DNA of 64,000 bases, taken from NCBI GenBank assembly GCA_022562055.1, contig JADFQA010000007.1, positions 3,680 through 67,679 of the forward strand, in the 5' to 3' direction. Numbering within the stretch: the first letter of the stretch is position 1; each line of letters starts with the position of its first letter. The notes under the pieces are model-generated. The model did no database searches and was not told the DNA's origin. It worked only from the letters and a program-made list of their open reading frames with translations. Shown here piece after piece: positions 15,408-34,760 of this stretch. Origin of the DNA: Acidobacteriota bacterium. GTDB lineage: Bacteria; Actinomycetota; Acidimicrobiia; Spongiisociales; UBA5794. Position numbers and translations under genes: made by a program.

Positions 15408-15417
15408 GTGCTGATTG

Positions 15418-17644: not shown

Positions 17645-19632
17645 CTGCCGCCAGCGGCGCTCTGGGTCTGCACGATGCCATTCTGTTCGGCGCTTGTAAC
17701 CACGATCGGGTCACCGACCGCAACTCCAAAGCCGGCCGCCGCAAACGTGGCCTGAGCGTTGGCGAATTCCATGCCGACAACCGACGGCACCAGCAGTGGA
17801 CAATCCTCTTCGCTGTCTGGCATGTTGCACGGATGTACCTCGATAATTTTCGTCCGGGGACGGTACGTCGCGGTGTCTTTTTCTTCAGTGACCGTACCGT
17901 CGGGAGCCGTGATAATGCGTGTGATCGTCACCGACCATCCGCCGAGGCCATTGCGCTTGATATGTTCTTCGCCGGGGGCGAGCGAGGCGTCGGGCTCGTA
18001 CTCGGTTTTCGGTTCAGTGAATGCGAATCGCCCCGACCTCTCGGCCTCGCATGTGACGCCGCCGGTGTTGCCATAGAACTGCACGGTGATCGAGGTCGAC
18101 GTGTACTGGGTCTTGATGATGAGGGCCGTCTCGGTGTTGTTACGCAGAATGAGATTCGGCGCCGGCCAAGAAATCGTCGCTTCACGGCCCTCGGGATAGC
18201 GCGAGAAATAGATCGAATGCGGAACATGTCTGATGTCCTCGTAACAACCGAAAAAGATCGCGTTGTAGAACGTAGTTGCGAACTGGCTGACGCCGCCGCC
18301 AATAACCTGTACTAGTTCACCACCCAAGATCATGCCGTCCGACAAGTAGCCCTTTTCAACAGTTCGTTCGCCGACTGCTACGTTGAGCGAATACTCTTCT
18401 CCGGGAAGGACGATGTTTCCGTCGACCGCCTCGGCGAAAAGCTGAATGTTGATAACGCGATTCTGCCCTGCCGGATGGTTGGTGGTGAACTCGCTCACCA
18501 GACCGACTTCGTCCATGGCTTCGGCATCTGCCGTTGTGAACGAAGCCGCCTCCCCTTCGGCAAATGGGAACTCGCCGATCCGCACGCCGGAAGACGCGGT
18601 GGCGAAAATGGCTTCAGCAACGAGGTCGATGTCGAGCGACGTCGATGGACGCGACGGGACGAGTACGACCGGGAATCCCTCGCCTTCGCCGACCTCGGCC
18701 TCCTCGTCGATGGTCCACTCAGCATCGCGAGCCTCCGAGCGCGCAGTCTCACGCAGTGGTTCGATGACGTTGACGAGTTTGTCTCTGTCAAATCCGAGGA
18801 CGATCCGCGGAGTTCCCAAAGTCACCACGTTCGATACGAATGCGTTGATGAGTTGCTGCGAGGTGATGACAAGCTCGATTTCGGGCTGCTCGGAACGGAG
18901 GGTGATTGGCCCGCCGATGAGCAAGTTCGCTTCGCTCACGGCCTTGTCAATATCGTTTCTGGTTAGTGAAGGCTGCACCTCAATTGTTGGAAGCCATGCG
19001 GTGTTTGTGCTTGGGTTCGTGAGGACGTTGGTGAGAATCGCTAATGCGGGGACACGGTCGATTCCCTCACCCGACACCGGGTACTCCGCCTTGGCGAATC
19101 CGCCAGCCATCACTACCGCCCCCTCGTATGCCGGGATGGAGATGGCGTCTTGCTGCCATTGGTCGATCTGTTGATCCAGAAGTACAGGATCGATGGTCAC
19201 CGCAACGTCAATCGTCCGAGTGTCGCCAAACGACGAAAACCAACCCAGTACTTGACCAATCAGACCGGACTCACGTCGTTGTAACAGTGCCTCTTCAACT
19301 ACTTCATCAGTGTTGAGGACGAGGTCGACCGACTTTGGGTCAAGCTGGAACGTAGTGTCCTTGACGGTAATCAAGGCCGGCTCGTCGCGTAGAGCAGCCT
19401 CGTACTCAAGAACAGCAACTGTTGCATCCTCTGGACCGAATCCGCCTACCTCGATTCCCGCAATTGTGACATTGCGAGCGATTTCCCCGTTGCGCGACGA
19501 TATGTCGGCCACGATCACCAGTAAGGGGAACAGCACAACTACGACGAGTAGGTATTTCAGGTTGTTTCGTAATTTCGCGATTACGCGTGCAGCCCCTGCC
19601 GGTGTCGGTGGAAATCGGCGCTCACTCACCAT
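17581..19632 (-). CDS. VanW family protein with N-terminal TM anchor and C-terminal PASTA domain
   Basis: TM LKYLLVVVVLFPLLVIV. VanW core motifs (PGEEYSLNVAVGERTVEKGY, GGGVSQFATTFYNA). C-terminal about 70 aa matching PASTA (VPSVVGMEFANAQATFAAAGFGVAVGDPIVV...). Confidence 0.75.
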   Translation of the reverse strand: MVSERRFPPTPAGAARVIAKLRNNLKYLLVVVVLFPLLVIVADISSRNGEIARNVTIAGIEVGGFGPEDATVAVLEYEAALRDEPALITVKDTTFQLDPKSVDLVLNTDEVVEEALLQRRESGLIGQVLGWFSSFGDTRTIDVAVTIDPVLLDQQIDQWQQDAISIPAYEGAVVMAGGFAKAEYPVSGEGIDRVPALAILTNVLTNPSTNTAWLPTIEVQPSLTRNDIDKAVSEANLLIGGPITLRSEQPEIELVITSQQLINAFVSNVVTLGTPRIVLGFDRDKLVNVIEPLRETARSEARDAEWTIDEEAEVGEGEGFPVVLVPSRPSTSLDIDLVAEAIFATASSGVRIGEFPFAEGEAASFTTADAEAMDEVGLVSEFTTNHPAGQNRVINIQLFAEAVDGNIVLPGEEYSLNVAVGERTVEKGYLSDGMILGGELVQVIGGGVSQFATTFYNAIFFGCYEDIRHVPHSIYFSRYPEGREATISWPAPNLILRNNTETALIIKTQYTSTSITVQFYGNTGGVTCEAERSGRFAFTEPKTEYEPDASLAPGEEHIKRNGLGGWSVTITRIITAPDGTVTEEKDTATYRPRTKIIEVHPCNMPDSEEDCPLLVPSVVGMEFANAQATFAAAGFGVAVGDPIVVTSAEQNGIVQTQSAAGGSYLDGGATITVRLGEYTPPET

Positions 19633-19709
19633 GTGTATGCCGACACCACAGTCTAAATGGTTTCTGAAATTGCACAATATCGCATGTGTGTCGTGCGATA
19701 CGATGGGGC

Positions 19710-20483
19710 ATGGATCTGCCGATTACCGTTGCGGGCGAGGACCTCGCCGTCTCCGCCACAACCTATGTTGCGTTTAGGCAGTGCCCGGCATCTGCGGTTG
19801 CCCGCCTTTCGGGAATCTACGGACCCGAAACCAAGGCCTCGTTCAAGGGCAGCCTTGCGCACAGGATTTTCGCACGCCATCTCGAGCGCGGTCCTATCGA
19901 TTCGACCGACGTTGACCATGCGTGTCGAGAGGAGATCGGGAAAGCCTTGAACCACAAGATGGCGTCACTTGGATTGAAGCCGTCGGAGCTGGGCCTTGTC
20001 CTACAGGAGGTGGGTGCTCTCTACGAGACGTTTCGGCAAATGCCCGTCGATGGATTCCGTGCTTGTGAGGTGTACATCGATGCCGATGCCGGATCGGGCG
20101 TCACCCTGCGGGGTCGCATCGACGCGATTTTTGATACTAATGATGGCGGTGTGCGTCTCGTTGATTGGAAGACTGGTCAGCTTGGTGATGTCGACGACCA
20201 GTTGGCCTTCTACGCCTTGACGTGGTTTGCGGATACGGGTGCCCTGCCCGCTACGATCGAGGCTCTTTCGGTGCAGACCGGAGAGCGCACCGAGCGCGTC
20301 CCCACCGAGGACTCGTTGCACATGACTGCGGTTGAGGTTGGGAGTCTCGTGGACACGGTGCGACGTCTACTCGTCAGCGGTGACGAAGGCGAACGCCGGG
20401 GCGGACAGTGGTGTCGCTGGTGTCCTCTCCTTGAGGATTGTTCGGAAGGTCAAACCGCGACGGCCGTCTACCGCCACGGATAA
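19710..20483 (+). CDS. Cas4/RecB-like PD-(D/E)XK nuclease with predicted 4Fe-4S cluster, stand-alone
   Basis: Nuclease motifs GRIDAIF (D), LVDWKTG (ExK) and QLAFYAL (QxxxY). Four Cys in a Cas4/AddB-like arrangement (C at FRQCPA, then CRWCPLLEDC). Confidence 0.7.
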   Translation: MDLPITVAGEDLAVSATTYVAFRQCPASAVARLSGIYGPETKASFKGSLAHRIFARHLERGPIDSTDVDHACREEIGKALNHKMASLGLKPSELGLVLQEVGALYETFRQMPVDGFRACEVYIDADAGSGVTLRGRIDAIFDTNDGGVRLVDWKTGQLGDVDDQLAFYALTWFADTGALPATIEALSVQTGERTERVPTEDSLHMTAVEVGSLVDTVRRLLVSGDEGERRGGQWCRWCPLLEDCSEGQTATAVYRHG

Positions 20484-20532
20484 GCACCTTGACGTCCGGG
20501 ACACGGCGCGATGTCTGGCATACTGCGTCGCT

Positions 20533-21393
20533 ATGGCAACCTTGATGGCGATCCACGCCCACCCCGATGACGAGAGTTCCAAGGGCGCCGCGACCGTTGC
20601 TCGGTACGCTGACGCAGGGGTTCGATGTCTGCTTATTACGGCCACGGGAGGTGAGGCCGGCGACATCCTCAACCCCGCAATGGACAACGATGAAGTCCGC
20701 GACAATCTCGCTGAAATTCGTCGTAAAGAACTTGAGGAGGCAGCTCGTATCATCGGATACGACGATGTGTTCATGCTCGGTTATCGCGACTCGGGCATGG
20801 TCGATTCCCCGGACAACGCCAACCCTGCAGCTTTCGTGAACGCTGACTACGACGAAGTTCTCGAGAAGGTCGTCACGTTGGTGCGCACGCATCGTCCAGA
20901 TGTATTCCTTGGGTACGACGCGCACGAGTTCTACCCGCATCCTGACCACTTGCGAATACACGCCATCACGACCGACATCATGGCGGCTGCTGCGGACGCG
21001 AAATGGTTTCCGGATGCGGGCGAGCCGTGGAAGATCCGGCGGCTGGTGGCGTCCCTGTTTTCGCGGCGAGGCATGTTGGCCATCCACGAGGTACTCCTCG
21101 AACGTGATGGAGAATCCCCCTTTACCGAGTGGATCGACAGAATTCGAGGAGAAGATGTGCCCGACGTCAGGACGCTTGCTGTCGAAGTAAGCGCCACCAT
21201 GCAACGCGCACGGGATGCTCTGCGGGCGCACGCCACCCAGGTCGATCCGGACGGATTTTGGTTTCAGGTGCCGATCAAGCTTGCAAAAGAGGTGTACCCG
21301 TACGAGGACTTTCAGATTCTCCTTTCTAACCCTCCGATGACAGACGGGGTAGGCGACCTCTTCGCTGGGCTCACCGGCGGGACTTCCGGGTAG
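20533..21393 (+). CDS. mca: Mycothiol S-conjugate amidase
   Basis: LMAIHAHPDDESSKGAATVARYADAGVRCLLITATGGEAGDILNP, later YPHPDHLRIH and ALRAHATQVDP. These closely resemble the remembered Mca (Rv1082) sequence; 286 aa. Confidence 0.8.
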   Translation: MATLMAIHAHPDDESSKGAATVARYADAGVRCLLITATGGEAGDILNPAMDNDEVRDNLAEIRRKELEEAARIIGYDDVFMLGYRDSGMVDSPDNANPAAFVNADYDEVLEKVVTLVRTHRPDVFLGYDAHEFYPHPDHLRIHAITTDIMAAAADAKWFPDAGEPWKIRRLVASLFSRRGMLAIHEVLLERDGESPFTEWIDRIRGEDVPDVRTLAVEVSATMQRARDALRAHATQVDPDGFWFQVPIKLAKEVYPYEDFQILLSNPPMTDGVGDLFAGLTGGTSG

Positions 21394-21565
21394 TCTTTGC
21401 AGCTTCGCCCCTTGGTAAGCCGTATTGCTGCGCGGCAACAAGAGCGATCGTCCGCATGCTGACACGGACTGCATTGGGCTAGTTGGTCGGTAGCGATTGC
21501 GCCCTCGGTGGCGAGTTGTTGGAATCATTCGGCGATGCAGTCGGGATGTGGTGTAATTCGGTCCT

Positions 21566-23056
21566 ATGGAGATCGAATCGGGGGCCAACAACAGCATCAA
21601 AGCGGAGCTCGGTTTCCTCGCTGCACCGCTTGAAGGTGTCGGCATCCACCCGGATGTCGAACGGAGGCGCAGGTCCGCGGTCGGTGAATACATGATGCGC
21701 CGCCATGCGGCCCACCGCCAAGTCCCTCTCGTGGTTGTTGTCGGACTCACCGGAACAGGTGTCTCGACGGTCGTCAACGCGTTGTGCGGCGCGGATGTCG
21801 CCACCACAGGAGTGCTCAGGCCGACCACGACCAGTCCGCTCATCGTTGTGACGGCAGACAATCTCGATGCTCCGGTCACAGGACTCGCTGTTGCGATGGA
21901 CGGTGCGCCACGGGTCGTCGAGATGGCTTCCGTTCCGTTCACCATCATCGACGCACCGGCGTGGGAGATGGGTGTCGGCGGCGAGGTCTCCGCTCGGCTT
22001 CTGCCCCTTGCTGATGTCGTTGTGTGTGTCACGACACCTGAGCGGTACGCAGATGCCGGAGTGTGGCGGCTCATCGAGGCCGCCAGAGACGCTGGGGTGG
22101 CAGTCGTCGTAGTGATGAACATGCCGACCGACGGTCCGCTCGACGACCTGAAGGGTCGCATGGCCCTGAGGTACGGTGCGCTTGCACCACCGGTCGTTGC
22201 TGGAATCGCATCTGATGATCTCGTGGCTGCGATTACGGTGGCCGCTTCTTCGCACCGCGTTCACAGCATCGATGGTGCGCGGTCGAGGTTGCGGGAAGTG
22301 CTCAAGACAATGGAGCCGATCATTGAGGAGTCCGCGGCCCTTCTTGAGACCGCCAGGGTCATCTACGCCGACCATTCACGGGCTTTGGCGGATCGGCTAA
22401 AGGCCGGCGAATTTGTCCCTGCAGCTGAGTCGCAGACGCTGACTGATGCGTCGTTCTCGCTCGCATCAGTCATCACTAGCCGCATCGGCGCCGCTGCCGA
22501 GCAGACGGCGACGGCGTGGGCCGCGACGAAGTTGGGAGAAGCCGCGCTCGTGTCCGAAACTGTTGGATTGTGGCGCCATGGACCCGCCGTTTCCGCGTTG
22601 TCGCAGCGGCATGTGGCTGAGACCATCGGCGACATACGGATGGTTGTCCGTGACATGACGAAGTGGCGTCGGCCCTCTGAGCGAAAGCTGTCGCTGGCGT
22701 CAGACTATCTGTGGAGGGCTGCTCTGGGACGCGACGTTGCCAACTGGACAATGAAGCGCGGTTTCGGAAAGCGCCGCGCCAGAGCCGTGGATAGGGTCCG
22801 GAGTTTGTTCTCCGAGGCGGTAACGCAAGTCTTTAGTGCGGACCGGCAGCGTTTTATCGACCGCTTGCATCACATTCCGACGGCCGCCCGGCTTTGGTCA
22901 CTGCACGAATCATTCGAGGACCGTCCAGACGTGGTTCGGGACCGTGGCGAATCTGAGTCTTCGATCAGCATCGATCTGGCAGACGGTTCCGACATCTTGG
23001 TCGACGAACACGGGACCACTCCGGATTCCGTGCATGCGAAGGGTGCTGATGCGTGA
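21566..23056 (+). CDS. P-loop GTPase-family protein with degenerate G1 and G4 motifs (likely pseudo-GTPase), first gene of a coupled pair
   Basis: G-domain architecture, but Walker A reads GLTGTGVST (Lys replaced by Val) and G4 reads NMPTD instead of NKxD. Long helical C-terminal region; 496 aa. Confidence 0.7.
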   Translation: MEIESGANNSIKAELGFLAAPLEGVGIHPDVERRRRSAVGEYMMRRHAAHRQVPLVVVVGLTGTGVSTVVNALCGADVATTGVLRPTTTSPLIVVTADNLDAPVTGLAVAMDGAPRVVEMASVPFTIIDAPAWEMGVGGEVSARLLPLADVVVCVTTPERYADAGVWRLIEAARDAGVAVVVVMNMPTDGPLDDLKGRMALRYGALAPPVVAGIASDDLVAAITVAASSHRVHSIDGARSRLREVLKTMEPIIEESAALLETARVIYADHSRALADRLKAGEFVPAAESQTLTDASFSLASVITSRIGAAAEQTATAWAATKLGEAALVSETVGLWRHGPAVSALSQRHVAETIGDIRMVVRDMTKWRRPSERKLSLASDYLWRAALGRDVANWTMKRGFGKRRARAVDRVRSLFSEAVTQVFSADRQRFIDRLHHIPTAARLWSLHESFEDRPDVVRDRGESESSISIDLADGSDILVDEHGTTPDSVHAKGADA

Positions 23057-24227
23057 CGTTGATCAACTAATCGATGCCCTTGATAGGGTGGTCGTTACGG
23101 CCCCCGGATTCGTCGACGAAGGTCTCGCCATTGCGGCGGATTCGGCTGCTTTGCAACTCCGGCGCCGGACCGGCTACCTAGGTGAAACCCTTGTCCTTGC
23201 GATTGTCGGTGGTACTGGGGCGGGAAAGTCGAGCCTGCTAAATGCGATTGCTGGGGAGCCAATCGCCTCGGTGAGCGACATTCGCCCGCACACCCACGAG
23301 CCGCTCGCATGGATACCCGAATCCGCGGGTGGTGGACTCACCGCACTCCTCGACGATCTCGAGGTGCATGTCCGTAGACCACAGAACCTATTTGATTCTC
23401 TGTGCATCATTGATCTTCCAGACTTTGACTCGTACGCCGAGGCGCACCGTGAGGTGGTCGAGCGGTTGCTGCCGCTGGTGGACGTCGTTGCGTGGCTGGT
23501 CGACCCGGTCAAGTACGCGGATCCGTCCCTGCATAGTGACTTCCTCAAACCGGTCCATCAACACGGCGCACAGTTTGTGTTTGTCATGAACAAGATGGAT
23601 CTGCTTTCCCCCGAGAGCCGCGTGGCGGTCGTTGACGACTTTGTCCGTCTGCTCGGTGAAGATGGCTTCGAGGAGACGTCCGTCATAGCTATTGCGGCCT
23701 CGCCGACCGAGGGAGAGCCGTTCGGTATCGATGAGTTGACGGCTCACCTTCGTCTCCGGCTGACTGACAAGCGTCTCGCTCTGAACAAACTCGTGCACGA
23801 GGTGCGGGATCTCGTTCGCCGAATCGGGATCGATGCAAGTGTGTGGAACGGGTTTGGTGAGTCTTTCGATGAGCGGTGGCGGGTTACCCGAGACAAGGTA
23901 GCGACCGGGCTTGCCGAACCCGTCGGCTCGCCGGAGCGGGAGGATGCGGCTTGTCGGTTGTCGGACTTTGTTGCGGCGTTAGCGCAGTCTGCAGGCGACC
24001 ACGCAGCCGAGGTACGAAAGGCGGTGCCGCACACGGTCATCGATCAAGCGGTCAAAGATGTTGCTGCCAACGCCATGACCACAAGTCTGACCGCGCGGAG
24101 AGACCATCTCGACGCGAAGATCGGAAGCCCGCTCCGCGATTGGGCGCATCGTCGGGCTGTGTTCGGCGCTACTGTCGCATTCGCGGGCGTGAGTGCATAT
24201 GCAGTGGAGGACAGATTGTGGCGTTGA
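23049..24227 (+). CDS. Canonical P-loop GTPase (dynamin/HSR1-like) with hydrophobic C-terminal segment, second gene of the coupled pair
   Basis: ATGCGTGA start/stop overlap with the upstream gene. Walker A GGTGAGKSSLLNAI, G3 IIDLPD, G4 VMNKMD. C-terminal AVFGATVAFAGVSAYAV is hydrophobic. Confidence 0.7.
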   Translation: MRDVDQLIDALDRVVVTAPGFVDEGLAIAADSAALQLRRRTGYLGETLVLAIVGGTGAGKSSLLNAIAGEPIASVSDIRPHTHEPLAWIPESAGGGLTALLDDLEVHVRRPQNLFDSLCIIDLPDFDSYAEAHREVVERLLPLVDVVAWLVDPVKYADPSLHSDFLKPVHQHGAQFVFVMNKMDLLSPESRVAVVDDFVRLLGEDGFEETSVIAIAASPTEGEPFGIDELTAHLRLRLTDKRLALNKLVHEVRDLVRRIGIDASVWNGFGESFDERWRVTRDKVATGLAEPVGSPEREDAACRLSDFVAALAQSAGDHAAEVRKAVPHTVIDQAVKDVAANAMTTSLTARRDHLDAKIGSPLRDWAHRRAVFGATVAFAGVSAYAVEDRLWR

Positions 24228-25108
24228 CGAACCTGGAGATTTTCGGATATGAGATCTCCGATTCACTATCGGATCAGATCGGCCCGGCGGTTGCAACACT
24301 GTCTTGGGTAGTGGTGTCTTTTGTTGCATGGAAGGTTATAAAACGGATTGGCGACTCCAGCGTGACGCGGCTGACTACGCGTGCCGAGAAGCTGACGGCG
24401 ATCGAGGCTGAGGACCGTAAGCAGCGTGTCGAAACGCTCTGGTCGGCGGTGAGGGCTGTCATGTTGTCCGTTGTCGTCATCATTGTCTTTTTGGGGATAC
24501 TCAACGTATGGGGTGTCAACACGGCGCCGTTCCTGGCCATCGGATCGATTATGGGGTTGGCTGTCGGTTTCGGCGCCCAAGACTTTGTCAAAGACGTGAT
24601 CGCTGGGTTCCTGATCCTCGCCGAAGATCAGTACTCGCTCGGCGATGTCGTCAAAATCGCCGACGTCAGCGGCACGGTGAAGGAGATCACGCTTCGTTCG
24701 ACCATCTTGCGAGACCTCGACGGGAGGGTTCACTACGTGCCAAACGGATCGATATCGGTGGCCACGAACTACACCCAGGAGTACAGCCAGGTGGTTATCG
24801 ACGTTGGGTTTGGGTACGGCGAAGACGTCGACAAGATCATTCCCGTCATTCAAGACGAACTCGATCGGTTCGCGGCTGACGAAAAGTGGGCGTCGGCGTT
24901 TATCGATCCGCCCGAGATCCTCGGCGTCCAAGAACTCGGCGACTCCTCAGTGTCCGTCCGGTGTCTCTTGCGGGTCGCACCAGAGTTCCGCTGGTCGTCG
25001 CGGAGGGAGTTCCTGCGTCGCATCAAGATGCGCTTCGATGCCGACGACATCGAAATTCCGTTCCCGTACGTGACGATTGCGCGACCTCCAACCAAGAGCA
25101 ACGACTAG
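24218..25108 (+). CDS. Small-conductance mechanosensitive channel (MscS family)
   Basis: GTG start overlaps the upstream GTPase stop by 10 nt. Three TM helices, then MscS TM3/beta-domain signature (IGSIMGLAVGFGAQDFVKDVIAGFLIL, GDVVKI..VSGTVKEITLRSTILRDLDGRVHYVPNG). Confidence 0.8.
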   Translation: MALTNLEIFGYEISDSLSDQIGPAVATLSWVVVSFVAWKVIKRIGDSSVTRLTTRAEKLTAIEAEDRKQRVETLWSAVRAVMLSVVVIIVFLGILNVWGVNTAPFLAIGSIMGLAVGFGAQDFVKDVIAGFLILAEDQYSLGDVVKIADVSGTVKEITLRSTILRDLDGRVHYVPNGSISVATNYTQEYSQVVIDVGFGYGEDVDKIIPVIQDELDRFAADEKWASAFIDPPEILGVQELGDSSVSVRCLLRVAPEFRWSSRREFLRRIKMRFDADDIEIPFPYVTIARPPTKSND

Positions 25109-25126
25109 ACCGGGGCACGCACGGAT

Positions 25127-25750
25127 TTGGCTAGTTCGACGCGGTTGCGCGGTATCGAGGTCGTTGTTTTCGACCTGGGCGGTGTCCTGGTACGGCTCGG
25201 CTCCTACACCGATGTGGTTGGTGAGGACTCGATGTCGGCTGATGAGTTTTGGTCCATGTGGCTGTCGAGTCCTGCCGTTCGCCGTCTTGACGGCGGCGTA
25301 TCGAGTGTCAACGAATTCGGCGAGGAGATCGTGAAGGAACTTGGCTTGCCGTTTGCCCCTCAAGAACTGATACAAAGGTTCCTTGAATGGCCTAAGGGGC
25401 TGTTTGATGGGGCGTACGAAGTGGTTCAGCGCGTGCGAGAGTCTCGCACGGTGGCGGTTCTCAGCAACATCAACGTCTTGCACTGGACTTCACAGCGCGA
25501 TCACGAGACGATCTCGCGGATGTTTGATGTGCAGTTTCTCTCTTACGAAATCGGACTGGTCAAACCCGACTTGACCGTGTTCCACCATGTCATCAACGAA
25601 CTCGGTGTCGAGCCGGATGCGATCTTCTTCCTCGACGACAATCAGGCCAACGTCAGCGCAGCTAGGGGAGTTGGGATCGATGCGGTCCTCGTGAACAGCG
25701 TTGACCAGATGCGGCGCGCCCTGGTCGACCGCGGCGTGCTGCACCTCTAA
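25127..25750 (+). CDS. HAD superfamily hydrolase (subfamily IA-like)
   Basis: Motif I VVVFDLGGVLV and motif IV FFLDDNQANVSAARGVGIDAV; 207 aa. Confidence 0.75.
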   Translation: MASSTRLRGIEVVVFDLGGVLVRLGSYTDVVGEDSMSADEFWSMWLSSPAVRRLDGGVSSVNEFGEEIVKELGLPFAPQELIQRFLEWPKGLFDGAYEVVQRVRESRTVAVLSNINVLHWTSQRDHETISRMFDVQFLSYEIGLVKPDLTVFHHVINELGVEPDAIFFLDDNQANVSAARGVGIDAVLVNSVDQMRRALVDRGVLHL

Positions 25751-25769
25751 CCCCATGTTCAAGAGGGGG

Positions 25770-27089
25770 TCAGGGCGACGTGCTCTTTGGGGTCGAGGTT
25801 TCGCGGCGGACCTGGAATCTTTCGTAGACGTAGCTAAGGCTTGCGCCTTTGTAGGTGGCGGTGACTTCCCAGCACCCGTTGATACGAGCGTCGATGCCCG
25901 CAATCATCAACTGACCGCCTTCGGGTGTGCCCGCGTTGGTGCCCGGCTGGTTTGACACGATGGTCTCGCCGTCTAGGACATCGATACGGCGCCACGTCAC
26001 GGCGATCTCGGGGCTTGGTTCCGTGGGCCAGCCTGCAAACCTGACGCTCCACCATAGGCTCTTCCGTGGCTGGTATTCGAATCCTTGGCGGGGCAGAATT
26101 GTCCACAGATCGGCGGTTCCGTACCACAGGTCGAATTCCCAGAGGGGGTCTGCGTAATACGGTTCGGGCGCCGAGAACCCGGGGTCTGGGGGTGCGGTCG
26201 ATATGCAAATCCCTTGGGTTCGGTCACCTTCGGGAGCACCAGCGGCGAGCGATGACACGATATTCCAGGTTTGCTCCCATTGGCCTGGTGACACCGCATC
26301 ACCAGCCACAAGCACGACGTCAACAACATTGTCGTTGAGGACCCACAGCGCGCGTTTTGTCGTGAGTCCATCGGGCTTCGAGCAACCTTCCGAATCCAAG
26401 CGTGCGCGCTCGAAATCGTTGATCGGTGTCGATGAACGGGGCCGTGGGGAGAGCGGTGCCTCAATCGTATCGTTTGCGGTTGCTGTGTCTCGCGACAAAC
26501 CGATGTAGGGACCCACGACTGTGATCGAGATCAGGGTGTCGGTGGCGCCGACCCGGAGCATATCGTCGCCGACTACCGCGAGGCATTGTGATGTCTCTGC
26601 TGTCAGTGGAAATGTGGCGATCTGCACCATTGCACTGTCGGGTCCCAGCCCCGCGGTGTCCCGCCGAAACCAATCCGATGGGTACGCAATGGACCATCGA
26701 GGCGGTTCCTGTTTGCTCTGCTGAGCACTTGACGCAGTCGCAACAGTGACCGGCGACGTGAGGTCCTGCGGGTCGCCGCTATTGAGACTCGTGGCAACGG
26801 CGATGAACACGAAGATGCTGACGACCGCCGCACCGACTAGCAGCGATCGTCGGTGTCTTCGTTTCGGACGGTCGCCTCCGAGCGTAGGTGGTTGAAGATT
26901 CGAGGCCCCGGACACAAGAGTCCGTACCGCGTGGTCTCGGGCTTCATCGAAACCGGGAACGGGCGAGGTTGATCGCGACTCGTCGCACCCAAGCGTTCGG
27001 TGAGTCCATTTGCTCCACGCTGTTCCAGTCGCGATGGGCGCGGACGAAGGCCTCCTGGGCGAGGTCCTCAGCGGCCCAGCGGTTACCAC
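25770..27089 (-). CDS. Membrane-anchored protein with large extracytoplasmic domain (anti-sigma-factor-like topology); start uncertain
   Basis: Single TM (RRSLLVGAAVVSIFVFIAVA) after a short cytoplasmic N-terminus. The annotated 5' end overlaps the sigma-like ORF by 145 nt in another frame. Confidence 0.45.
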   Translation of the reverse strand: MVTAGPLRTSPRRPSSAPIATGTAWSKWTHRTLGCDESRSTSPVPGFDEARDHAVRTLVSGASNLQPPTLGGDRPKRRHRRSLLVGAAVVSIFVFIAVATSLNSGDPQDLTSPVTVATASSAQQSKQEPPRWSIAYPSDWFRRDTAGLGPDSAMVQIATFPLTAETSQCLAVVGDDMLRVGATDTLISITVVGPYIGLSRDTATANDTIEAPLSPRPRSSTPINDFERARLDSEGCSKPDGLTTKRALWVLNDNVVDVVLVAGDAVSPGQWEQTWNIVSSLAAGAPEGDRTQGICISTAPPDPGFSAPEPYYADPLWEFDLWYGTADLWTILPRQGFEYQPRKSLWWSVRFAGWPTEPSPEIAVTWRRIDVLDGETIVSNQPGTNAGTPEGGQLMIAGIDARINGCWEVTATYKGASLSYVYERFQVRRETSTPKSTSP

Positions 27090-27192
27090 TCAGCGCCCAG
27101 GTCAACGCAACCACCGATGAGTAGGTGTCCCGATAGAACACCGCAAACGTGCTGGGCACCTGTACCGGGAGTGGCCGCACGGAGTCGTCCAT
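26944..27192 (-). CDS. ECF-type sigma-70 region 2-only protein (no region 4)
   Basis: 82 aa containing FYRDTYSSVVALTWALSGNRWAAEDLAQEAFVRAHRDW...PNAWVRRVAINLARSRFR (ECF sigma region 2.1-2.4). The stop follows immediately. No region-4 HTH is encoded downstream in any frame. Confidence 0.55.
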   Translation of the reverse strand: MDDSVRPLPVQVPSTFAVFYRDTYSSVVALTWALSGNRWAAEDLAQEAFVRAHRDWNSVEQMDSPNAWVRRVAINLARSRFR

Positions 27193-27358
27193 CGATCCTC
27201 ACTATCGGTAAGCGTATTCACACCCTACAGACGCACAGGCAACGTGGTCCGCTTAGACAGACTGGTCCGTTCGGACGGAAGTGGGAGATGTTGCGGCTCC
27301 GTCGAGAGGCCACTGATCCTGCGAGGACGGAGGTCCAGGACTAAGGCACAAGCCCGAG

Positions 27359-28276
27359 TCACCGAGGCACGAGCATCGAGAGGGCGTCGTGGTCCGTGGA
27401 GATAACGACTCGTGAAGCTGCCCCCAGCAGCTCGCCGTCGGCCTGCACCCGGGTTACTGGATCTGCCTCGACGACGAGGTGCTCGGCGTTGTCGAGGATC
27501 GTTATTCCGTCAATGCCGTCGAGCGGTTTGTGGATTGCCGCTCTTCCAAGAAGATCGGCGCCGGTGAGCGGGGACAGCCGTTCAATAACCAGCGCAGTCG
27601 TGCCCACGAACGGTCCGGGTCCGAATTTGAGAGGCGCGGTCCCGAAGTACGTGTAGAGATGGTGAAGCTGCACGAGGACCGTCACTGCGTCAAGCGTTGT
27701 GTCTCCGCTCGTTACCCGCAGGTTTGGAGACTTCGAGCGGTAGGGTCCAATAAGTTTTGCAGCGGCTGTCTTCGCGTAGTGCATCGACCCGAAAAAGAGT
27801 TTGGCGCTCGGGCGCTGTTCTGCGACTTCGACGACGTCAGCATCAAATCCCACGCCGACGTTGAACGTTGCCAGCGATGTCCGCTCCTTGCCGTCAACGG
27901 TTGCGACAATACGAGCGATGGGACGTCCTGCGGGAATGGCGCTGGCGAGGGCCCGTGCGGCTTTTCTCGGTTTCTTGGAAACACCGAGGATTCGGGCGAG
28001 CACATTTGTTGTCCCCACCGGGATTATACCGAGTGCGGTCCCGGTGTCCACGATGCCGTTGGCGACTCGGTTAACCACACCGTCACCGCCCATGGCAACC
28101 ACTGCAAATACTTCCTGGTGCGCCGCGTCAATAGCGGCTTCGGTGGCGTCCTCCGCCGACTCCGGCCAAACCCGGGTCACGTCGAAGGATTCTCCGAGGA
28201 TTGTCACGACGTCGCGGAAGGCAGAACCGGTGAATCCCGAGGACGCTGGGTTGGCGATGAGGACGACTTGGCGCAT
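27359..28276 (-). CDS. Diacylglycerol kinase catalytic-domain family lipid kinase (YegS/BmrU-like)
   Basis: MRQVVLIANPASSG N-terminus and AMGGDGVVNRVANG motif; 305 aa. Confidence 0.8.
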   Translation of the reverse strand: MRQVVLIANPASSGFTGSAFRDVVTILGESFDVTRVWPESAEDATEAAIDAAHQEVFAVVAMGGDGVVNRVANGIVDTGTALGIIPVGTTNVLARILGVSKKPRKAARALASAIPAGRPIARIVATVDGKERTSLATFNVGVGFDADVVEVAEQRPSAKLFFGSMHYAKTAAAKLIGPYRSKSPNLRVTSGDTTLDAVTVLVQLHHLYTYFGTAPLKFGPGPFVGTTALVIERLSPLTGADLLGRAAIHKPLDGIDGITILDNAEHLVVEADPVTRVQADGELLGAASRVVISTDHDALSMLVPR

Positions 28277-28314
28277 GAGGCGAAGGGTAGAAGCGTGGCT
28301 GTGTTGTTGTCAGG

Positions 28315-29571
28315 TTAAGCCGGCGATTCGGTACTCGCTGGAGAAGTAAACCCATCGTCGACCCCATTGAGCACGATGCGTGCCGCAATGATGAACAGCG
28401 TCAGACTTCCAAGCGCGGCCGCCCTTGGCCACCCGAATCCGTCTACTTGGATCGCCCACACCAATGGGCCAAGAAGTGTCGCAAACCGACCCACCATGGC
28501 GTACAATCCATAGAACTCGCCGAGGTGTTGCGGCGGCGCAATGGCCGTCATATACACGCGGTCGGATGACCAGGTGAGTCCCAATGCAATCCCTGCGCCG
28601 ATTCCGATCAGTGGAGCCAGCGACACGAGGCCTGCGATCCCGGCGGTAACCGCTACCGCAATTGTGAAGATCCACAGATACAGGGTGCCATGGAGTACCC
28701 GACGAGGCCCGTAACGATCGACCAGACGGCCTCCGCCGATGCCTCCGGCGATTGAGAACACCACCGAGATACCAAGCAAGCTGCGGATTTCGGCGTCGGT
28801 CATCCCGAGGTCCTCCTTGGCGTAGATCGCGAGAAAGCCGCCGATGATCGTGTTGATGGCATCGGTGTATAGGAACCGACCGACGAGAAATCTGGCGACC
28901 TGTGGGTAAGCCCGAGCCCGCTGCCAGGCCTGGACAAAGTGGCGTGGGATTGATCGAACCCGCGGCCGATCGCCGGTTTCAGTGTGGAGCCGCGGTCGTT
29001 CTTCGATCCAGATGAATGACGGCAATGCAAACAGCAAGAACGCGATCGCGATCGCCTTGAAAACGGCCGGGTAGCCGTACGAGTCCAACAACACTGCTCC
29101 GATGATCAACGCAAGCGCTGATCCGAAATACCCGACACCGACTCCGAGGCCCGAGACGCGGCCACGAGTCTGTGGGCTAGAGACATCGGGCAGCAGCGCG
29201 TTGTAAGGCACGCCGCCCAGATTGAAACCGATCACCGCAACCGTGAACAACGCGAGCGATGGGTAGAGACCGAACGATCCTAGGAAGAACGTCGCCGTCA
29301 CCGCGAGCAGCGTCGTCGGGATGAGCAGCCGTACGCGTTTTCCGCTGAAGTCACCAAGTGCCCCAACCCATGGCGCCAGGATTATGACCACCGCCATTGC
29401 AACGTTGAGAGCGACGGCCAGGTTGGTGTCGGAGCCACCAACCTCGTTCATCCAGGTCGGGAAGTAGAGGCTGCCGACACCGAGTGCGAATATCGTGTTT
29501 GCCAGGTCATAGGTAACCCACGAAGCAACGGAGCGGCGTGAGGCCTGTCGATTGGAGGGCGATTTGGTCAC
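28315..29571 (-). CDS. MFS transporter (UMF1/Atg22-like)
   Basis: 12 predicted TM helices. N-terminal WVTYDLANTIF is similar to the second MFS at 47848-49203 (WAMYDWANSAY). Confidence 0.8.
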   Translation of the reverse strand: MTKSPSNRQASRRSVASWVTYDLANTIFALGVGSLYFPTWMNEVGGSDTNLAVALNVAMAVVIILAPWVGALGDFSGKRVRLLIPTTLLAVTATFFLGSFGLYPSLALFTVAVIGFNLGGVPYNALLPDVSSPQTRGRVSGLGVGVGYFGSALALIIGAVLLDSYGYPAVFKAIAIAFLLFALPSFIWIEERPRLHTETGDRPRVRSIPRHFVQAWQRARAYPQVARFLVGRFLYTDAINTIIGGFLAIYAKEDLGMTDAEIRSLLGISVVFSIAGGIGGGRLVDRYGPRRVLHGTLYLWIFTIAVAVTAGIAGLVSLAPLIGIGAGIALGLTWSSDRVYMTAIAPPQHLGEFYGLYAMVGRFATLLGPLVWAIQVDGFGWPRAAALGSLTLFIIAARIVLNGVDDGFTSPASTESPA

Positions 29572-29603
29572 CCGAGGGACCGTAGCTGATCGAGTCTGCG
29601 CTG

Positions 29604-29969
29604 TCAGGCGTCGAGTAGCTTTTCGATGCGTTCGCGTAGCTCGGTTGGTCTGAACGGCTTCGTCATGAACTCGTCCGCACCACCTTGTGCTGCCTGTTCT
29701 GCGATCTCCGGCTGTGCATGAGCGGTAAGCACCAGTACCTTGATGTTCTTAGTTTCCTCGCCGGATCTGAGGTGACCGAGAACCTCCCACCCATCCATGC
29801 CGGGAAGGCCAATATCGAGCACTATTACCTCAGGAAGCGACTCTCGGGCCGCAGCGAGACCGAGGATGCCGTCTTCTGCTGAGGACAGTTCGACGTCAAG
29901 AGCCCTGAGGCACACCTCGATCAATCGTCGGACGCTGGCTGAATCTTCTATGACGAGAACTTTTGGCAT
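29604..29969 (-). CDS. Single-domain response regulator (CheY-like receiver)
   Basis: KVLVIEDS...VIVLDIGLPGMDG...KVLVLTAH receiver motifs; no output domain. Start trimmed to avoid overlap with the divergent kinase. Confidence 0.75.
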   Translation of the reverse strand: MPKVLVIEDSASVRRLIEVCLRALDVELSSAEDGILGLAAARESLPEVIVLDIGLPGMDGWEVLGHLRSGEETKNIKVLVLTAHAQPEIAEQAAQGGADEFMTKPFRPTELRERIEKLLDA

Positions 29970-30068
29970 GGGGTGTCCAATATCGGGCATTTCAATGTTC
30001 TCCTTCACCTTTTTATGTCGTCTGCCGACAAAGCTGTTGCGACCACTGAAGGGAGGCGCCGACCTCGT

Positions 30069-31838
30069 ATGCCCCGATCAATCTACCAAAGCGAGCAGCG
30101 TGGCGCGGCAAGTTCTCTTGTCTACGCGACCGGGCAGACTGGACGATTGGTCGGAGAAGTGTTCGGTGCTCTCGAAGAGGGCGTGCAGGTCCCCCACTTG
30201 GCTACGGTCGTTGCTCGAAATCTGGCGTGCGCCGCCGAAGCAGGCCGCGCTACCGTTATTATTTGGAACACTGATGGAACCGTCTGGGCTGGGGCGACTC
30301 GCCTCTCCGACGGCACACCTGACCTCCATTTGTGGGCTGCACTCCATGCTCGGTTCAGGGCAATCCCCGCGGTGACCAGGGCGATCGACGAACGGCTCAT
30401 TGTGCACGCCACAAACTTATCGGACTCCAAGGCGACTGCATGGATGTCGGCATTGAGCATCGAGACAATCGCGGTGGTACCGCTTGTGCATCGCAACGCC
30501 GTAGTGGGTGTCGGGCTCATTGACGGCATCGAGCTACCGATTCCCCAGCATGTGACCAGGAGCATGGAAGCAGTTGCCGCTGCCGGCGCCGGCGCCATTG
30601 CTCTCGCAAACACGGTCGCTCGAGAGCGGCAGGAATGGCAACGAGCCAACCAGGTGCTGACAACAGTCGCGCGCGCTGCGAGTTCGCTTGACGCTGGGAG
30701 CGTGCTGAATGCCATAGCCGAGGGGATCGGCGAAGCACTCGGCGACCGGTTGTCGATGGCATTTCTGGTGGCGGATGGCCGGGCGACTCGCCTTGCAATC
30801 AGCGGAGATGGTGTTGGTGCAGTCGACCTTGCAGACACGCTCGTTGGGCGTGACGACACGCGGATGTCGGGTGTTGGGCCCATGTTGTTGTACCCGGATC
30901 TTGACAATGAGCCAGAGCTCTCGGTGCTCGGATTTGGTAGGCTTTTAGTAGCTCCGCTGCGTCGTGGCGCGCTTGATCTGGGATGGGTCGTGTCCGCGGA
31001 CGCTTCCGACACGCCGTATTCATCTGATGATGTTCGTGTTACTTCGGCCATCTGTGCTCAAGCCGCATTGTCTTTACACACCGCGTCGCTGCTCGAAACG
31101 GAGCGCTCTACGGTGGCGAGGCTTGAAGATCTTGATCGCCTTAAGACGACGTTCGTCGGTGCAGTGTCGCACGAGTTGCGGACGCCGTTGACGGCGGTAA
31201 TTGGTTACGGCGAGATACTTGCCGAGTACACGGACGACCCGACGATTGAGATGTTTGTCGATGAGATGCGTCGGGAGGCCGGTGTTCTCGAGTCGATGAT
31301 CGGAAATCTTCTTGACACCACTCGGTTGGAGGCGGGAATGCTCCAACTCAACCGCGGGGTCGTTGAGATTCCGGAAATTGTCGAACGAGCTATCGAGGTC
31401 GTTCGACACGGCCACCGTACGCGGAAGATCTTGTTCTCCGAACTGGGGACGAGGGGCATGTGCTCGGGCGACGCGGCACGCCTACGACAGGTGTTTGTGA
31501 ACCTCATCGAGAACGCGGCGAAGTATTCGCCAAGCGAGATGCCGATCGACGTTTCAGTCGAATGGGGGATCTTCACAAGTCTTGGCCCCGTCGTTCGCAT
31601 AATCGTCGACGACCGTGGCCCGGGGATCCCTCGCAGCCAGCGCGACGCCATCTTTGAGAGGTTCTATCGCTTGGCGGCCGACAGCGGCACCCCGGGAACC
31701 GGAATCGGGTTGTACCTTGTCCGTGCCCTCGTCGAGGCACACGGGGGAGCCGTCGAAGTTGTCGACCAACCGGGTGGAGAGGGTACACGATTTGTCGTTG
31801 ACCTCCCGGTCGATGTTGACGACGACCCAGCGGACTGA
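30069..31838 (+). CDS. Cytoplasmic sensor histidine kinase with GAF domains
   Basis: HisKA H-box FVGAVSHELRTPLTAV. HATPase N (NLIENAAKYS), G1 (DDRGPGIP), G2 (GTGIGLYLV) boxes. No TM segments. ATG at 30069. Confidence 0.8.
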   Translation: MPRSIYQSEQRGAASSLVYATGQTGRLVGEVFGALEEGVQVPHLATVVARNLACAAEAGRATVIIWNTDGTVWAGATRLSDGTPDLHLWAALHARFRAIPAVTRAIDERLIVHATNLSDSKATAWMSALSIETIAVVPLVHRNAVVGVGLIDGIELPIPQHVTRSMEAVAAAGAGAIALANTVARERQEWQRANQVLTTVARAASSLDAGSVLNAIAEGIGEALGDRLSMAFLVADGRATRLAISGDGVGAVDLADTLVGRDDTRMSGVGPMLLYPDLDNEPELSVLGFGRLLVAPLRRGALDLGWVVSADASDTPYSSDDVRVTSAICAQAALSLHTASLLETERSTVARLEDLDRLKTTFVGAVSHELRTPLTAVIGYGEILAEYTDDPTIEMFVDEMRREAGVLESMIGNLLDTTRLEAGMLQLNRGVVEIPEIVERAIEVVRHGHRTRKILFSELGTRGMCSGDAARLRQVFVNLIENAAKYSPSEMPIDVSVEWGIFTSLGPVVRIIVDDRGPGIPRSQRDAIFERFYRLAADSGTPGTGIGLYLVRALVEAHGGAVEVVDQPGGEGTRFVVDLPVDVDDDPAD

Positions 31839-31974
31839 TCGGCGCCGTTTGTGACCACCGTCCGGTGATCGCCACCGCTGCCCGTCGGCGCCGGATATCG
31901 TAAACTCTTGCTGTGATCATGTTGACTGTCAGTGGCTCCTTCACGGGAGGCATGACGGCGTAGGAGGCTGGGAA

Positions 31975-33522
31975 GTGTTGCAACCGTACGTCAGCGAGTC
32001 CTACTCGGACTTCAGCGATAAGGGGACCGCCGCCGCCTATCGCAACGCTCAGTCTGTCGTTGAGGGGCAGCTTGGTGTGTACTGCCCGGTGGTTATTAGC
32101 GGTCGATCCATCAACACCGCAGCAACTACAACGTCGGTGAACCCGGCCCACCCAGAGCAGGTTGTCGGAACCGCGGCGGTCGCGACAAGCGCACTGGCCG
32201 ACGACGCGTTGGTTTCAGCGTGGGCGGCCTTTCCGGCGTGGTCAGCTACACCTGCGCACGAGCGGGCCCAAATTGTGCACCGCATCGGTGACCTGATGAA
32301 CGACCGGAAGTTCGAATTCGCGGCGTGGATGACGTACGAGGCCGGCAAGAACTGGTCCGAGGCTGAGGCCGACACAGCCGAGGCGATCGACTTCTGTCGC
32401 TACTACGCACACAGTTCAATCGCGATGGCTAAACCGGTGGAAACCGCCGACTTCGCTGGTGAATCCAACATCTCATGGTATCAACCCCTCGGTGCCGGTG
32501 TGGCGATTCCGCCCTGGAACTTCCCGCTGGCGATATTGGTTGGGATGTCGATTGGGCCGATCGCAGCGGGAAACACAATCGTGCTCAAGCCCGCGTCAGC
32601 GACGCCTGTCATTGGATACATGTTCTCGGAGGTAGCTGTCGAAGCCGGGCTTCCTCCGGGGGTTCTCAACTACCTTCCCGGTCCGGGATCGGACATCGGG
32701 GATGCTTTGGTAGACAACCCGCGGACACGGTTCATCAACTTCACCGGGTCAAAAGAGATAGGTCTGCGGATCGCCGAGCGAGCGGCCGTTGTCGGCGCGG
32801 GTCAGAAGTGGCTAAAACGTGTTTATGTTGAGATGGGTGGCAAAGACGCACTGATCGTCGATGAAACGGCGGACCTCGAAACCGCAGCCGACGATGCTGT
32901 GCGCAGCGCGTTCGGGTTTCAGGGTCAGAAATGCTCGGCGTGCTCACGCCTGATTGTGGTTGACGAGGTGTACGACGATGTCCTCGATCATGTGACGAGG
33001 ATTGCGAGCGAGCTATCGGTGGGAGACCCGACCGAGAACCATGCAGTAGGTCCACTCATCTCGGCAGCACAGCTCAAATCGGTACGGGCTGAGATCGATC
33101 TCGGCCGCAGTGAGGCAGAACTGGTGTTGGGTGGCGAGGCGGTCACCGACAGCGGTGGGTATTACCTTGCACCAACGGTATTCGCTGACGTCGAACCAAA
33201 CTCCCGACTTGCTCAGCACGAGATATTCGGACCGGTGCTGAGCGTGATCCGAGCGCGTAACTTTGACCATGCACTCGACATCGCCAACGGCACCGAGTTC
33301 GGTCTCACCGGCGGACTGCACACGAGTGACCGTGACCGAATCGAACGCGTGAAACGAGAGTTCCATGTCGGCAACCTCTACATCAACCGCAAGATCACGG
33401 GAGCTCTCGTCGGTATTCAGCCATTCGGCGGATTCAACATGTCTGGCTCGAACGCAAAGGCCGGTGGACCCGACTACCTGAGACTGTTCATGGAAATGAA
33501 AACCGTCGCCGAACGTCTATAA
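31975..33522 (+). CDS. pruA: L-glutamate gamma-semialdehyde (1-pyrroline-5-carboxylate) dehydrogenase, RocA/PruA type
   Basis: 515 aa aldehyde dehydrogenase with near-identical blocks to remembered Bacillus RocA (EADADTAEAIDF, PWNFP, FTGS, EMGGKD, GQKCSACSR, FHVGNLY.NR..TGA.VG.QPFGG.NMSG). GTG start after AGGAGG. Confidence 0.9.
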   Translation: MLQPYVSESYSDFSDKGTAAAYRNAQSVVEGQLGVYCPVVISGRSINTAATTTSVNPAHPEQVVGTAAVATSALADDALVSAWAAFPAWSATPAHERAQIVHRIGDLMNDRKFEFAAWMTYEAGKNWSEAEADTAEAIDFCRYYAHSSIAMAKPVETADFAGESNISWYQPLGAGVAIPPWNFPLAILVGMSIGPIAAGNTIVLKPASATPVIGYMFSEVAVEAGLPPGVLNYLPGPGSDIGDALVDNPRTRFINFTGSKEIGLRIAERAAVVGAGQKWLKRVYVEMGGKDALIVDETADLETAADDAVRSAFGFQGQKCSACSRLIVVDEVYDDVLDHVTRIASELSVGDPTENHAVGPLISAAQLKSVRAEIDLGRSEAELVLGGEAVTDSGGYYLAPTVFADVEPNSRLAQHEIFGPVLSVIRARNFDHALDIANGTEFGLTGGLHTSDRDRIERVKREFHVGNLYINRKITGALVGIQPFGGFNMSGSNAKAGGPDYLRLFMEMKTVAERL

Positions 33523-33608
33523 CCAACAGCTGCGCTCATCGAGATGCGCCAGGTTGACGTTGGGAACTGCGATAATGCCGAGCACGGCGTCGGTAAACAG
33601 GTGGACTA

Positions 33609-34760
33609 GTGAGGCAACGGGGTTGGACGATGGTTGCAACCTTTGCGGCTCTGTCTCTTGCGACTGCCTCCTGCGGCACCGTGGAGCCTGCGATCGCCGG
33701 AGCCGCCCCGCGTGGAGTACCGTCGACCTTGCCGCCGCCGACAACGACAACAACGCAGGACCCGGCGCTCACCGCGACCGAGGGTTACATCCGCATACCC
33801 CCCGGCGGTGCGGATCTCTACAACAGCGCAAACGGATCTGTGGTGCAGAGCATTGCTGAGGGCTTGACACTTGGATTCGTTTCCCGATCAGGCGAATGGC
33901 TCGAAGTCATTACCACCTGTGGGACGACAGCGTTTGTGACCGACACCCAAGTTGTGTTGTTCCCACGGGCCGCCATTTCCACAGGGACTGATTTATCGAA
34001 ACTGGTGATCGTCATCGACCCAGGTCATGGCGACAGGGATTGGGGTGGTGTTGGGCCCACCGGTCTGTCTGAAAAGAGCGTGAACCTCGACATCTCGGCC
34101 CGCCTCGCGTCTCTCCTCGAAACGCCGCATGACATTGACTTCACCACCGGAGAAGTGACCGTTGGAACGACCTACCCAGCCGTGCACGCTGCGTTGCTCA
34201 CACGATCTGCCGATGGGCCCAATGATGGAGACTACGAACTTGGCCTTGCGCACCGCGCCGGACTGGCCAACGCCGCAGGAGCCGCCGCCTTGATTTCGAT
34301 TCACAACAACACCGTACCCCTGAAAAAGACCGACAAGCCGGGTACCGAGGTGTACTACTCACTGGCCGCGGAGGACTCCGATCGGCTTGCGGGACTCGTG
34401 TATGACGAACTCGTCAAGTCAGTGGCCTCATTCACCGCTGAGTGGACCGGTGGAATCTCGCTCGGCGCCAGAGCGAGGCGAGACCCCGACACCGGCAGCG
34501 ACTATTACGGACTCCTCCGGCGGGCGACAATGCCGGCGGTGATCGTCGAAGGTATCTACATTTCAGAGCCGGAGGAAGAGGCACTGCTCAAGACGGATGA
34601 GTTCCGACAGGCCTACGCCGTCGCGGTGTATCGCGGCATCGTTCGATTCTTCACGACGAGCGACACGAGCACAAGCATTCAAGAGCCTGAACCGTTTCCC
34701 GACGATGCGGGCAAGTTGTCGAATCGGGCATGCCAAGTCCCCACACAGCCGGCGAGTTGA
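33609..34760 (+). CDS. N-acetylmuramoyl-L-alanine amidase (Amidase_3) lipoprotein with N-terminal SH3-like domain
   Basis: Lipobox LSLATASCG; VIVIDPGHGDRDWG, ISIHNN and EGIYISEPEEE amidase_3 motifs. Confidence 0.8.
   Translation: MRQRGWTMVATFAALSLATASCGTVEPAIAGAAPRGVPSTLPPPTTTTTQDPALTATEGYIRIPPGGADLYNSANGSVVQSIAEGLTLGFVSRSGEWLEVITTCGTTAFVTDTQVVLFPRAAISTGTDLSKLVIVIDPGHGDRDWGGVGPTGLSEKSVNLDISARLASLLETPHDIDFTTGEVTVGTTYPAVHAALLTRSADGPNDGDYELGLAHRAGLANAAGAAALISIHNNTVPLKKTDKPGTEVYYSLAAEDSDRLAGLVYDELVKSVASFTAEWTGGISLGARARRDPDTGSDYYGLLRRATMPAVIVEGIYISEPEEEALLKTDEFRQAYAVAVYRGIVRFFTTSDTSTSIQEPEPFPDDAGKLSNRACQVPTQPAS

Follow-up and report, generated by a model that had tools for sequence, protein, structure and literature searches.

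Can a sigma factor gene that ends directly after region 2 be anything other than the remains of a longer one? The question is raised by an open reading frame (ORF) of 82 codons in a stretch of 64,000 nucleotides, here called the window, that covers positions 3,680 to 67,679 of the forward strand of contig JADFQA010000007.1 (NCBI GenBank assembly GCA_022562055.1, labelled Acidobacteriota bacterium and placed by GTDB in the Actinomycetota, Acidimicrobiia, Spongiisociales, UBA5794). The initial annotation found a sigma-70 region 2 with an immediate stop, followed by a gene for a membrane protein, and offered three explanations: a decoy or RNA polymerase-binding regulator, a split sigma factor, or a remnant. 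The answer given here is that the ORF is most likely a young pseudogene, an ordinary extracytoplasmic function (ECF) sigma factor gene truncated by a 283-bp deletion flanked by microhomology, and a probability of roughly 0.9 is attached to it. The features on which the argument turns are listed below, where L001 is a metagenomic contig carrying the intact ortholog.

27230..27255, minus strand: putative ECF-type promoter, TAAGC-N17-CGTC (pattern match, conserved in orthologs)
26944..27192, minus strand: remnant of the ECF sigma gene, codons 1-82 (region 2) and a TGA made by the frameshift (Pfam; alignment to L001)
26947..26951, minus strand: deletion junction, with the single surviving TTCGA copy (5-bp microhomology; DNA alignment with L001)
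25770..26951, minus strand: membrane-protein gene, 393 homologous codons and the stop (homology to the L001 395-aa protein)
26952..27089, minus strand: spurious 5′ extension of the membrane-protein ORF, where sigma coding sequence is read in a second frame, back as far as the GTG at 27089
26915..26917, minus strand: GTG, residue 59 of the 439-aa ORF and the sole in-frame start past the junction (start-codon scan)

A sigma gene that ends after region 2

The product of the 82-codon ORF is MDDSVRPLPVQVPSTFAVFYRDTYSSVVALTWALSGNRWAAEDLAQEAFVRAHRDWNSVEQMDSPNAWVRRVAINLARSRFR, and the segments originally quoted from it, ...AEDLAQEAFVRAHRDW...PNAWVRRVAINLARSRFR, are present as given. It matches the Pfam family Sigma70_r2 (PF04542) with 42.3 bits (cut-off 24) over residues 20-82 and profile positions 2-66 of 71, and this is the sole Pfam match above cut-off, with neither PF08281 nor PF04545 detected in the product. 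The top NCBIfam model is TIGR02983, the SigE family, which aligns over positions 7-74 of 162, that is to say over its N-terminal half alone. The score of 63.0 bits is below the curated cut-off of that model (141.55), and the 24.0 bits obtained with the sigma70-ECF model TIGR02937 are below its own cut-off of 42.9. The Sigma2 domain, regions 2.1-2.4, is therefore present, and the Sigma4 domain, with the helix-turn-helix for the −35 element, is not on the same polypeptide.

Translation of all three frames downstream of the ORF yielded no region 4, as the initial annotation had reported, and the same holds when the search is widened to six frames of the window: a hidden Markov model (HMM) of region 4 made from 120 close homologs found nothing there (best E 0.3), and tblastn with the L001 region 4 found nothing credible in the window (best E 0.066). 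That best but weak tblastn match, at 17682..17888 on the plus strand, was rejected as a gene, being antisense to a 698-aa ORF. A region-2 HMM from the same 120 homologs matched the remnant, and the remnant alone, with an E of 2.9e-42.

The intact ortholog and the deletion

L001, the contig of the homolog P0002 (ENA ERZ23486734), is about 93% identical to the window at the DNA level and syntenic with it, with genes for an aldehyde dehydrogenase, a histidine kinase, a receiver, a major facilitator superfamily transporter, a diacylglycerol kinase-like protein, the sigma factor and the membrane protein. Its sigma factor has 173 aa and carries both Sigma70_r2 (residues 20-83) and Sigma70_r4_2 (residues 109-161); the remnant is 91.5% identical to its residues 1-82. 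The full-length protein passes the TIGR02937 cut-off with 65.1 bits. TIGR02983 is again the top-scoring model, now aligned over positions 7-158, and the 119.7 bits reached fall short of 141.55, which leaves the protein an ECF sigma close to that subfamily without being scored as one of its members. The sigma gene and that of a 395-aa membrane protein, beginning MNFDDARDH, share an ATGA in which the stop codon of the first overlaps the start of the second.

Alignment of the window with L001 DNA reveals one clean gap of exactly 283 bp (L001 5724..6006) with the pentamer TTCGA on both sides, one copy of which survives in the window. What has gone with the 283 bp is everything in the sigma factor after ...SRFR, namely the linker between sigma2 and sigma4, all of region 4 and the stop codon, together with ATG AAC, the opening two codons of the membrane-protein gene. 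As 283 is 3 × 94 + 1, and so not a multiple of three, the sigma frame now reads TTT CGA TGA and stops right after SRFR; going by the alignment, that stop is an accidental outcome of the frameshift. An intact, syntenic, full-length ortholog and an identifiable lesion, here L001 and the 283-bp frameshifting deletion, are what mark a pseudogene.

A second contig, L054, also has an intact full-length sigma gene at the same locus. The initial annotation had held that full-length orthologs at this position would mean simple truncation, and L001 and L054 are such orthologs. Its suggestion to ask whether orthologs lack region 4 as well has an equally plain outcome: the best 120 homologs of the intact sigma factor are all of 170-218 aa with regions 2 and 4 on a single chain, and none is region-2-only. 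Several of these 120 are named ECF or SigE-family in their sources, e.g. ‘SigE family RNA polymerase sigma factor [Acidimicrobiia bacterium]’. With full-length sigma factors in all 120 and upstream of the membrane-protein family in other genomes, full length is the ancestral condition and that of the window is derived.

The same junction elsewhere

The junction string CCCGGTTTCGATGAAGCC is identical in the window, in L046 and in L048-L053, making seven contigs from seven separate assemblies (ERZ23499094, ERZ27267408, ERZ23499143, ERZ27267425, Logan SRR12886644, ERZ23486746 and ERZ23486771) that came from different pipelines; L048 and L002 are one contig (ERZ23499094) and are counted once. An identical junction in seven assemblies excludes assembly error, and collapse by the assembler is excluded because the flanking repeat, at only 5 bp, is far too short. 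Identity between the window and the other carriers of the deletion is 98.5-100%, which makes the lesion a young one in evolutionary terms. Deleted and intact alleles (L053 and L054, respectively) were assembled side by side within ERZ23486746.

The intact L001 and the deleted L046 share BioSample SAMN18835368. Where deleted and intact alleles occur together in this way, within one metagenome or one series of samples, their DNA backgrounds are about 7-11% apart. L053 also shows what looks like a 13-nt indel, which is a scaffold N-gap and was rejected as a mutation.

The downstream membrane-protein gene

The next gene had been described as encoding a single-pass protein of over 400 aa whose 5′ end overlaps the sigma ORF by 145 nt. 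The protein stands, as a 439-aa ORF with one hydrophobic segment; the overlap does not. The longest downstream ORF (25770..27089, minus strand) begins with GTG and overlaps the sigma ORF by 146 nt with the stop codon included (26944..27089). Its residues 47-439 are homologous to the orthologs. Residues 1-46 are without homologs and come from the sigma coding sequence in a different frame, so the overlap is an artefact of taking the longest ORF. The MNFDDARDH of the L001 protein aligns to F47-D-E-A-R-D-H in the window (Phe-Asp-Glu-Ala-Arg-Asp-His, from 26951 down), and from residue 3 onward the two proteins have 85.8% amino acid identity; among homologs, P0001 is 99% and P0002 86% identical.

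The native ATG-Asn start and the ATGA coupling to the sigma gene are lost in the window. The ORF is otherwise intact, free of internal stops both in the window and in L046, L048, L049 and L050. Only two in-frame starts are available, the spurious GTG at 27089 and the GTG at 26915. The latter is used by gene callers in L002, L046 and L048-L050 to give a 381-aa product; its Shine-Dalgarno-like context is weak and L001 has GTT in its place. Overlapping the new TGA of the remnant at the junction there is also an ATG (ATGA) in the third frame, which opens a 36-codon ORF, MKPETTRYGLLCPGPRIFNHLRSEATVRNEDTDDRC* (26912..26946, minus strand). For ribosomes that stop at the remnant TGA, this dead-end ORF would be a likelier place to reinitiate than the membrane-protein frame.

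Single-nucleotide polymorphisms (SNPs) across 25758..26557 of the membrane-protein gene, compared with L046, L047 and L001, form mosaic blocks among the contigs: L046 is the same as L001 for about 400 nt and from there the same as the window for a further 400 nt, a pattern that suggests either recombination between populations or strain-chimeric assembly. L047 (NCBI GCA_022573205.1, JACZUK010000017.1, labelled Acidobacteria bacterium) is 97.7% identical to 20770..26551 of the window. Its first 229 nucleotides (L047:1-229) are thiolase-like (PF00108) and continue in frame into the middle of the membrane-protein gene, a joint that is probably a contig-end chimera and possibly a rearrangement. 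The taxonomic label of L047 conflicts with the Acidimicrobiia labels of all the other relatives.

The protein itself has one hydrophobic segment, a single Kyte-Doolittle peak, preceded by KRRHRR. The predicted layout is of a short cytoplasmic N-terminus, one transmembrane helix and an extracytoplasmic part that ends in a conserved domain of about 130 aa. No Pfam family is matched, the anti-sigma domains zf-HC2 and RskA included, and the NCBIfam model CU044_5270 gives a weak N-terminal match of 16-19 bits (cut-off 100). The N-terminal cytoplasmic segment of some 35 aa has neither cysteine nor an HxxxCxxC motif, and no anti-sigma domain of the ASD or ZAS (zinc-binding) type is recognizable. In an AlphaFold2 model the mean predicted local distance difference test (pLDDT) score is 58.7, with the β-rich C-terminal domain alone reaching 70-89; when the model was compared with the PDB by Foldseek the matches were generic immunoglobulin-like ones with E > 0.06, and no fold could be assigned.

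A scan of genome contigs with the L001 membrane protein alone recovered no relatives. With the alignment A2, a contig scan found the conserved C-terminal domain in 43 species-representative genomes, mostly Acidimicrobiia (L003-L045). Of the other genomes, at least 17 encode a full-length ECF sigma factor directly upstream of a member of the family, and in those loci start and stop usually overlap as ATGA, GTGA or TTGA. L055 and L058 have the same arrangement, with sigma factors 63-72% identical to that of L001. One case, L026:1987-3660 (plus strand) from the Nitriliruptoraceae metagenome-assembled genome CAWKMM010000015.1, is a 557-aa fusion of an ECF sigma (region 2 at residues 82-145, region 4 at 170-221) with the conserved C-terminal domain, and fusion of this Rosetta-stone type supports a functional link between the sigma factor and the membrane-protein family. 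Across the intact orthologs and the family the gene is thus paired, and co-translated, with one for an ECF sigma factor; in the window the coupling is destroyed. The proposal that the topology is anti-sigma-like and linked to the sigma factor is supported by the conserved adjacency and the start-stop coupling in other genomes, and the membrane protein is best called a putative anti-sigma factor or sensor.

The C-terminal domain of about 130 aa (25770..~26200 of the window, minus strand) matches no Pfam or NCBIfam family, and the gene for it usually follows directly on one for an ECF sigma factor. It carries the motifs WYGTxDLWTxLP, PRKSVWWS, GTNAxTPEDGWFMIAGIDP and GCWEVTATYKGAxLSYVY, and two invariant cysteines.

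Promoter-like motif and a proposed history

The pattern TAAGC-N17-CGTC occurs once in the window, as CTAAGC-N17-CGTC, where 0.33 matches are expected by chance over the whole 64 kb. Next come a conserved leader, TAGGGTGTG...AGTGAGGA, and the sigma ATG at 27192 (region 27193..27255, minus strand). In L055 and L058 the motif is located 64 nt before the sigma start codon, and it is present in L001, L004 and L005 also. ECF-type promoters before ECF sigma genes are usually autoregulated, and this motif probably served the ancestral operon as such a promoter. On the minus strand of the locus, a scan for sigma-70 promoters and terminators was of no help. Other sigma genes linked to the same C-terminal domain form a second subgroup, with TGCAAC-N17-CGTG instead (L011, L016, L017, L019, L020, L022 and L025).

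The ancestral operon, as orthologs show it, was ordered as an ECF-type promoter (CTAAGC-N17-CGTC), a leader of about 30 nt counted from the transcription start that the promoter position implies, the gene for a sigma factor of 172-173 aa with regions 2 and 4, and the membrane-protein gene, translationally coupled to it by an ATGA or GTGA overlap. In the lineage of the window a single 283-bp deletion between the two TTCGA pentamers, consistent with replication slippage or another microhomology-mediated event, took out linker and region 4 along with the sigma stop, and also the ATG-AAC that opened the next gene, and so left an 82-aa region-2-only ORF, with the membrane-protein ORF surviving minus its start codon and coupling. 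A product that lacks region 4 could not be expected to read a −35 element. Should the promoter be autoregulated, loss of region 4 would leave the operon largely silent and the 82-aa ORF a pseudogene remnant, and such silencing would add to the damage already done by loss of the downstream start codon and coupling.

In the wider setting, scans of 1..64000 of the window for tRNA genes and for Rfam families at gathering threshold came back empty. The GC content over the same range is 56-62% throughout and the cumulative GC skew rises steadily.

Decay or retention

One of the eight deletion-carrying sequences, L046, has in addition a TAT to TAG change at codon 20 (Tyr20) of the remnant, a nonsense codon that is not expected if the 82-aa product is needed. 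In the membrane-protein gene the ratio of nonsynonymous to synonymous substitution rates (dN/dS) relative to L001 is 0.28, against 0.06-0.15 in five neighboring genes. In a relative-rate test against the family consensus, two conserved sites at which the window and L001 proteins differ were informative, D345G and P355A, and in both it is the window that departs. The elevated ratio and the two replacements are weak hints of relaxed constraint.

Several observations pull the other way and have to be set against the pseudogene. The nonsense codon of L046 is known from one metagenome contig. Six assemblies have the remnant ORF intact and in identical form, though they were found by an exact-sequence search and the count is biased accordingly; its promoter-like motif, Shine-Dalgarno sequence and ATG are all intact, so expression is possible. 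The membrane-protein ORF has acquired neither stop nor frameshift in any carrier of the deletion. Carried widely, and alongside the intact one, the deletion allele must be at least tolerated and could be advantageous. For the remnant, dN/dS relative to L001 is 0.11, a value that mostly reflects history before the deletion, or the intact branch, and cannot settle the matter of constraint, and the deletion clade itself, having almost no substitutions, is too shallow for the ratio to be used.

Some of these observations are what an RNA polymerase-binding decoy or regulator would draw on. Such a protein would place region 2 on the β′ clamp helices in competition with sigma factors, and the allele would have been selected. 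Region 2 is nearly complete by its Pfam profile coverage, the signals for expression are in place and the product is encoded unchanged in those six assemblies, which represent several projects. However, the region-2-only state is limited to one very shallow clade of at least 98.5% DNA identity while the best 120 homologs of the intact sigma factor are all full length, one member of that very clade contradicts the proposal with its nonsense codon, the stop codon arose by accident from a frameshifting deletion, and expression should collapse if the promoter depends on the sigma factor that has been lost. A selected decoy is in our judgment very unlikely. A more elaborate version would have the sigma2-only protein still made by cross-recognized or basal transcription and acting as a competitor for, or adaptor of, the RNA polymerase core, with the membrane protein made from GTG 26915 and the allele maintained beside the intact one as a regulatory polymorphism in Acidimicrobiia-like populations; that combination can be granted a slim outside chance.

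Partition of a sigma factor between two genes has a precedent in SigO-RsoA of B. subtilis, a two-subunit sigma with sigma2 and sigma4 on separate polypeptides, as summarized in PMC7826278, and by analogy the 82-aa protein would be one half, with its region-4 partner encoded elsewhere. Against this, the region 4 of the family was not found in six frames of the window, it has been deleted and not relocated, and the orthologs are single-chain proteins. In the SigO-RsoA family, moreover, the split state is reportedly conserved (MacLellan et al., 2009), whereas here it is a derived lesion. A split sigma is extremely improbable. The remnant is accordingly the one of the three initial proposals to have gained support; neither decoy nor split sigma has found anything positive in its favor, as the window holds no region-4 partner and the region-2-only state is not conserved.

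Two further proposals are almost certainly wrong. That a programmed +1 frameshift at the junction (TTT CGA TGA to TTC GAT GAA) yields a membrane-anchored sigma2 domain would suit the position of the membrane-protein frame at +1 to the sigma frame, the sigma stop exactly at the junction and the natural sigma-transmembrane-domain fusion of L026, but no slippery motif or stimulatory element was recognized on reading the junction, though no dedicated motif or structure search was made, the arrangement is an accident of deletion, L026 keeps its region 4 and a fusion lacking it still could not recognize promoters. That the truncation is an assembly or sequencing artefact, the real genome having a full-length sigma, might be thought to follow from all the related sequences found being metagenome assemblies, from SNP blocks that suggest strain mixing and from an N-gap near the locus in the L053 scaffold, but it founders on the junction shared by the window and seven contigs of different pipelines, on the 5-bp repeat and on the separate assembly of L053 (deleted) and L054 (intact) from one sample.

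What the young pseudogene means for annotation is mainly negative: the 82-aa ORF is not to be annotated, or counted, as a new class of regulator, and what is at hand is a simple and datable deletion in an ordinary operon. It is also a natural loss-of-function allele found beside the intact allele in the same metagenomes, and could as such aid study of the ECF regulon in uncultured Acidimicrobiia-like bacteria. A further by-product that may be of use is the extracytoplasmic domain of the partner membrane protein, widespread, hitherto without annotation and consistently found with ECF sigma genes.

Comparison with known systems

By sequence the copy in the window belongs with the ECF (group 4) sigma-70 factors, closest to the actinobacterial SigE type of TIGR02983. 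Region 2 of the window copy matches (PF04542; TIGR02983 positions 7-74 of 162); unlike them it has neither the linker nor region 4 and fails the whole-protein cut-offs. With pairs of an ECF sigma and a single-pass membrane anti-sigma factor, the locus shares a single-pass protein whose N-terminus is predicted to be inside, NTGA coupling in orthologs, pairing in at least 17 genomes and one fusion. It differs in a cytoplasmic part of only about 35 residues (in the intact ortholog), in having no Pfam anti-sigma domain and, in the window, in the loss of the native start.

The resemblance to SigO-RsoA is confined to a polypeptide with a sigma region-2-like segment alone (PMC7826278); the window, in contrast, has no region-4 partner within its 64 kb, its split is not conserved in orthologs, and it arose by loss and not by partition. 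There is a likeness, too, to bacterial pseudogenes made by slippage-type deletion at microhomology: there is a single frameshifting deletion, a short direct repeat of which one copy is kept, an intact syntenic ortholog and, in the sister sequence L046, an additional nonsense mutation. Set beside these pseudogenes the case of the window has nothing unusual about it; it is a young lesion, with the downstream ORF still open.

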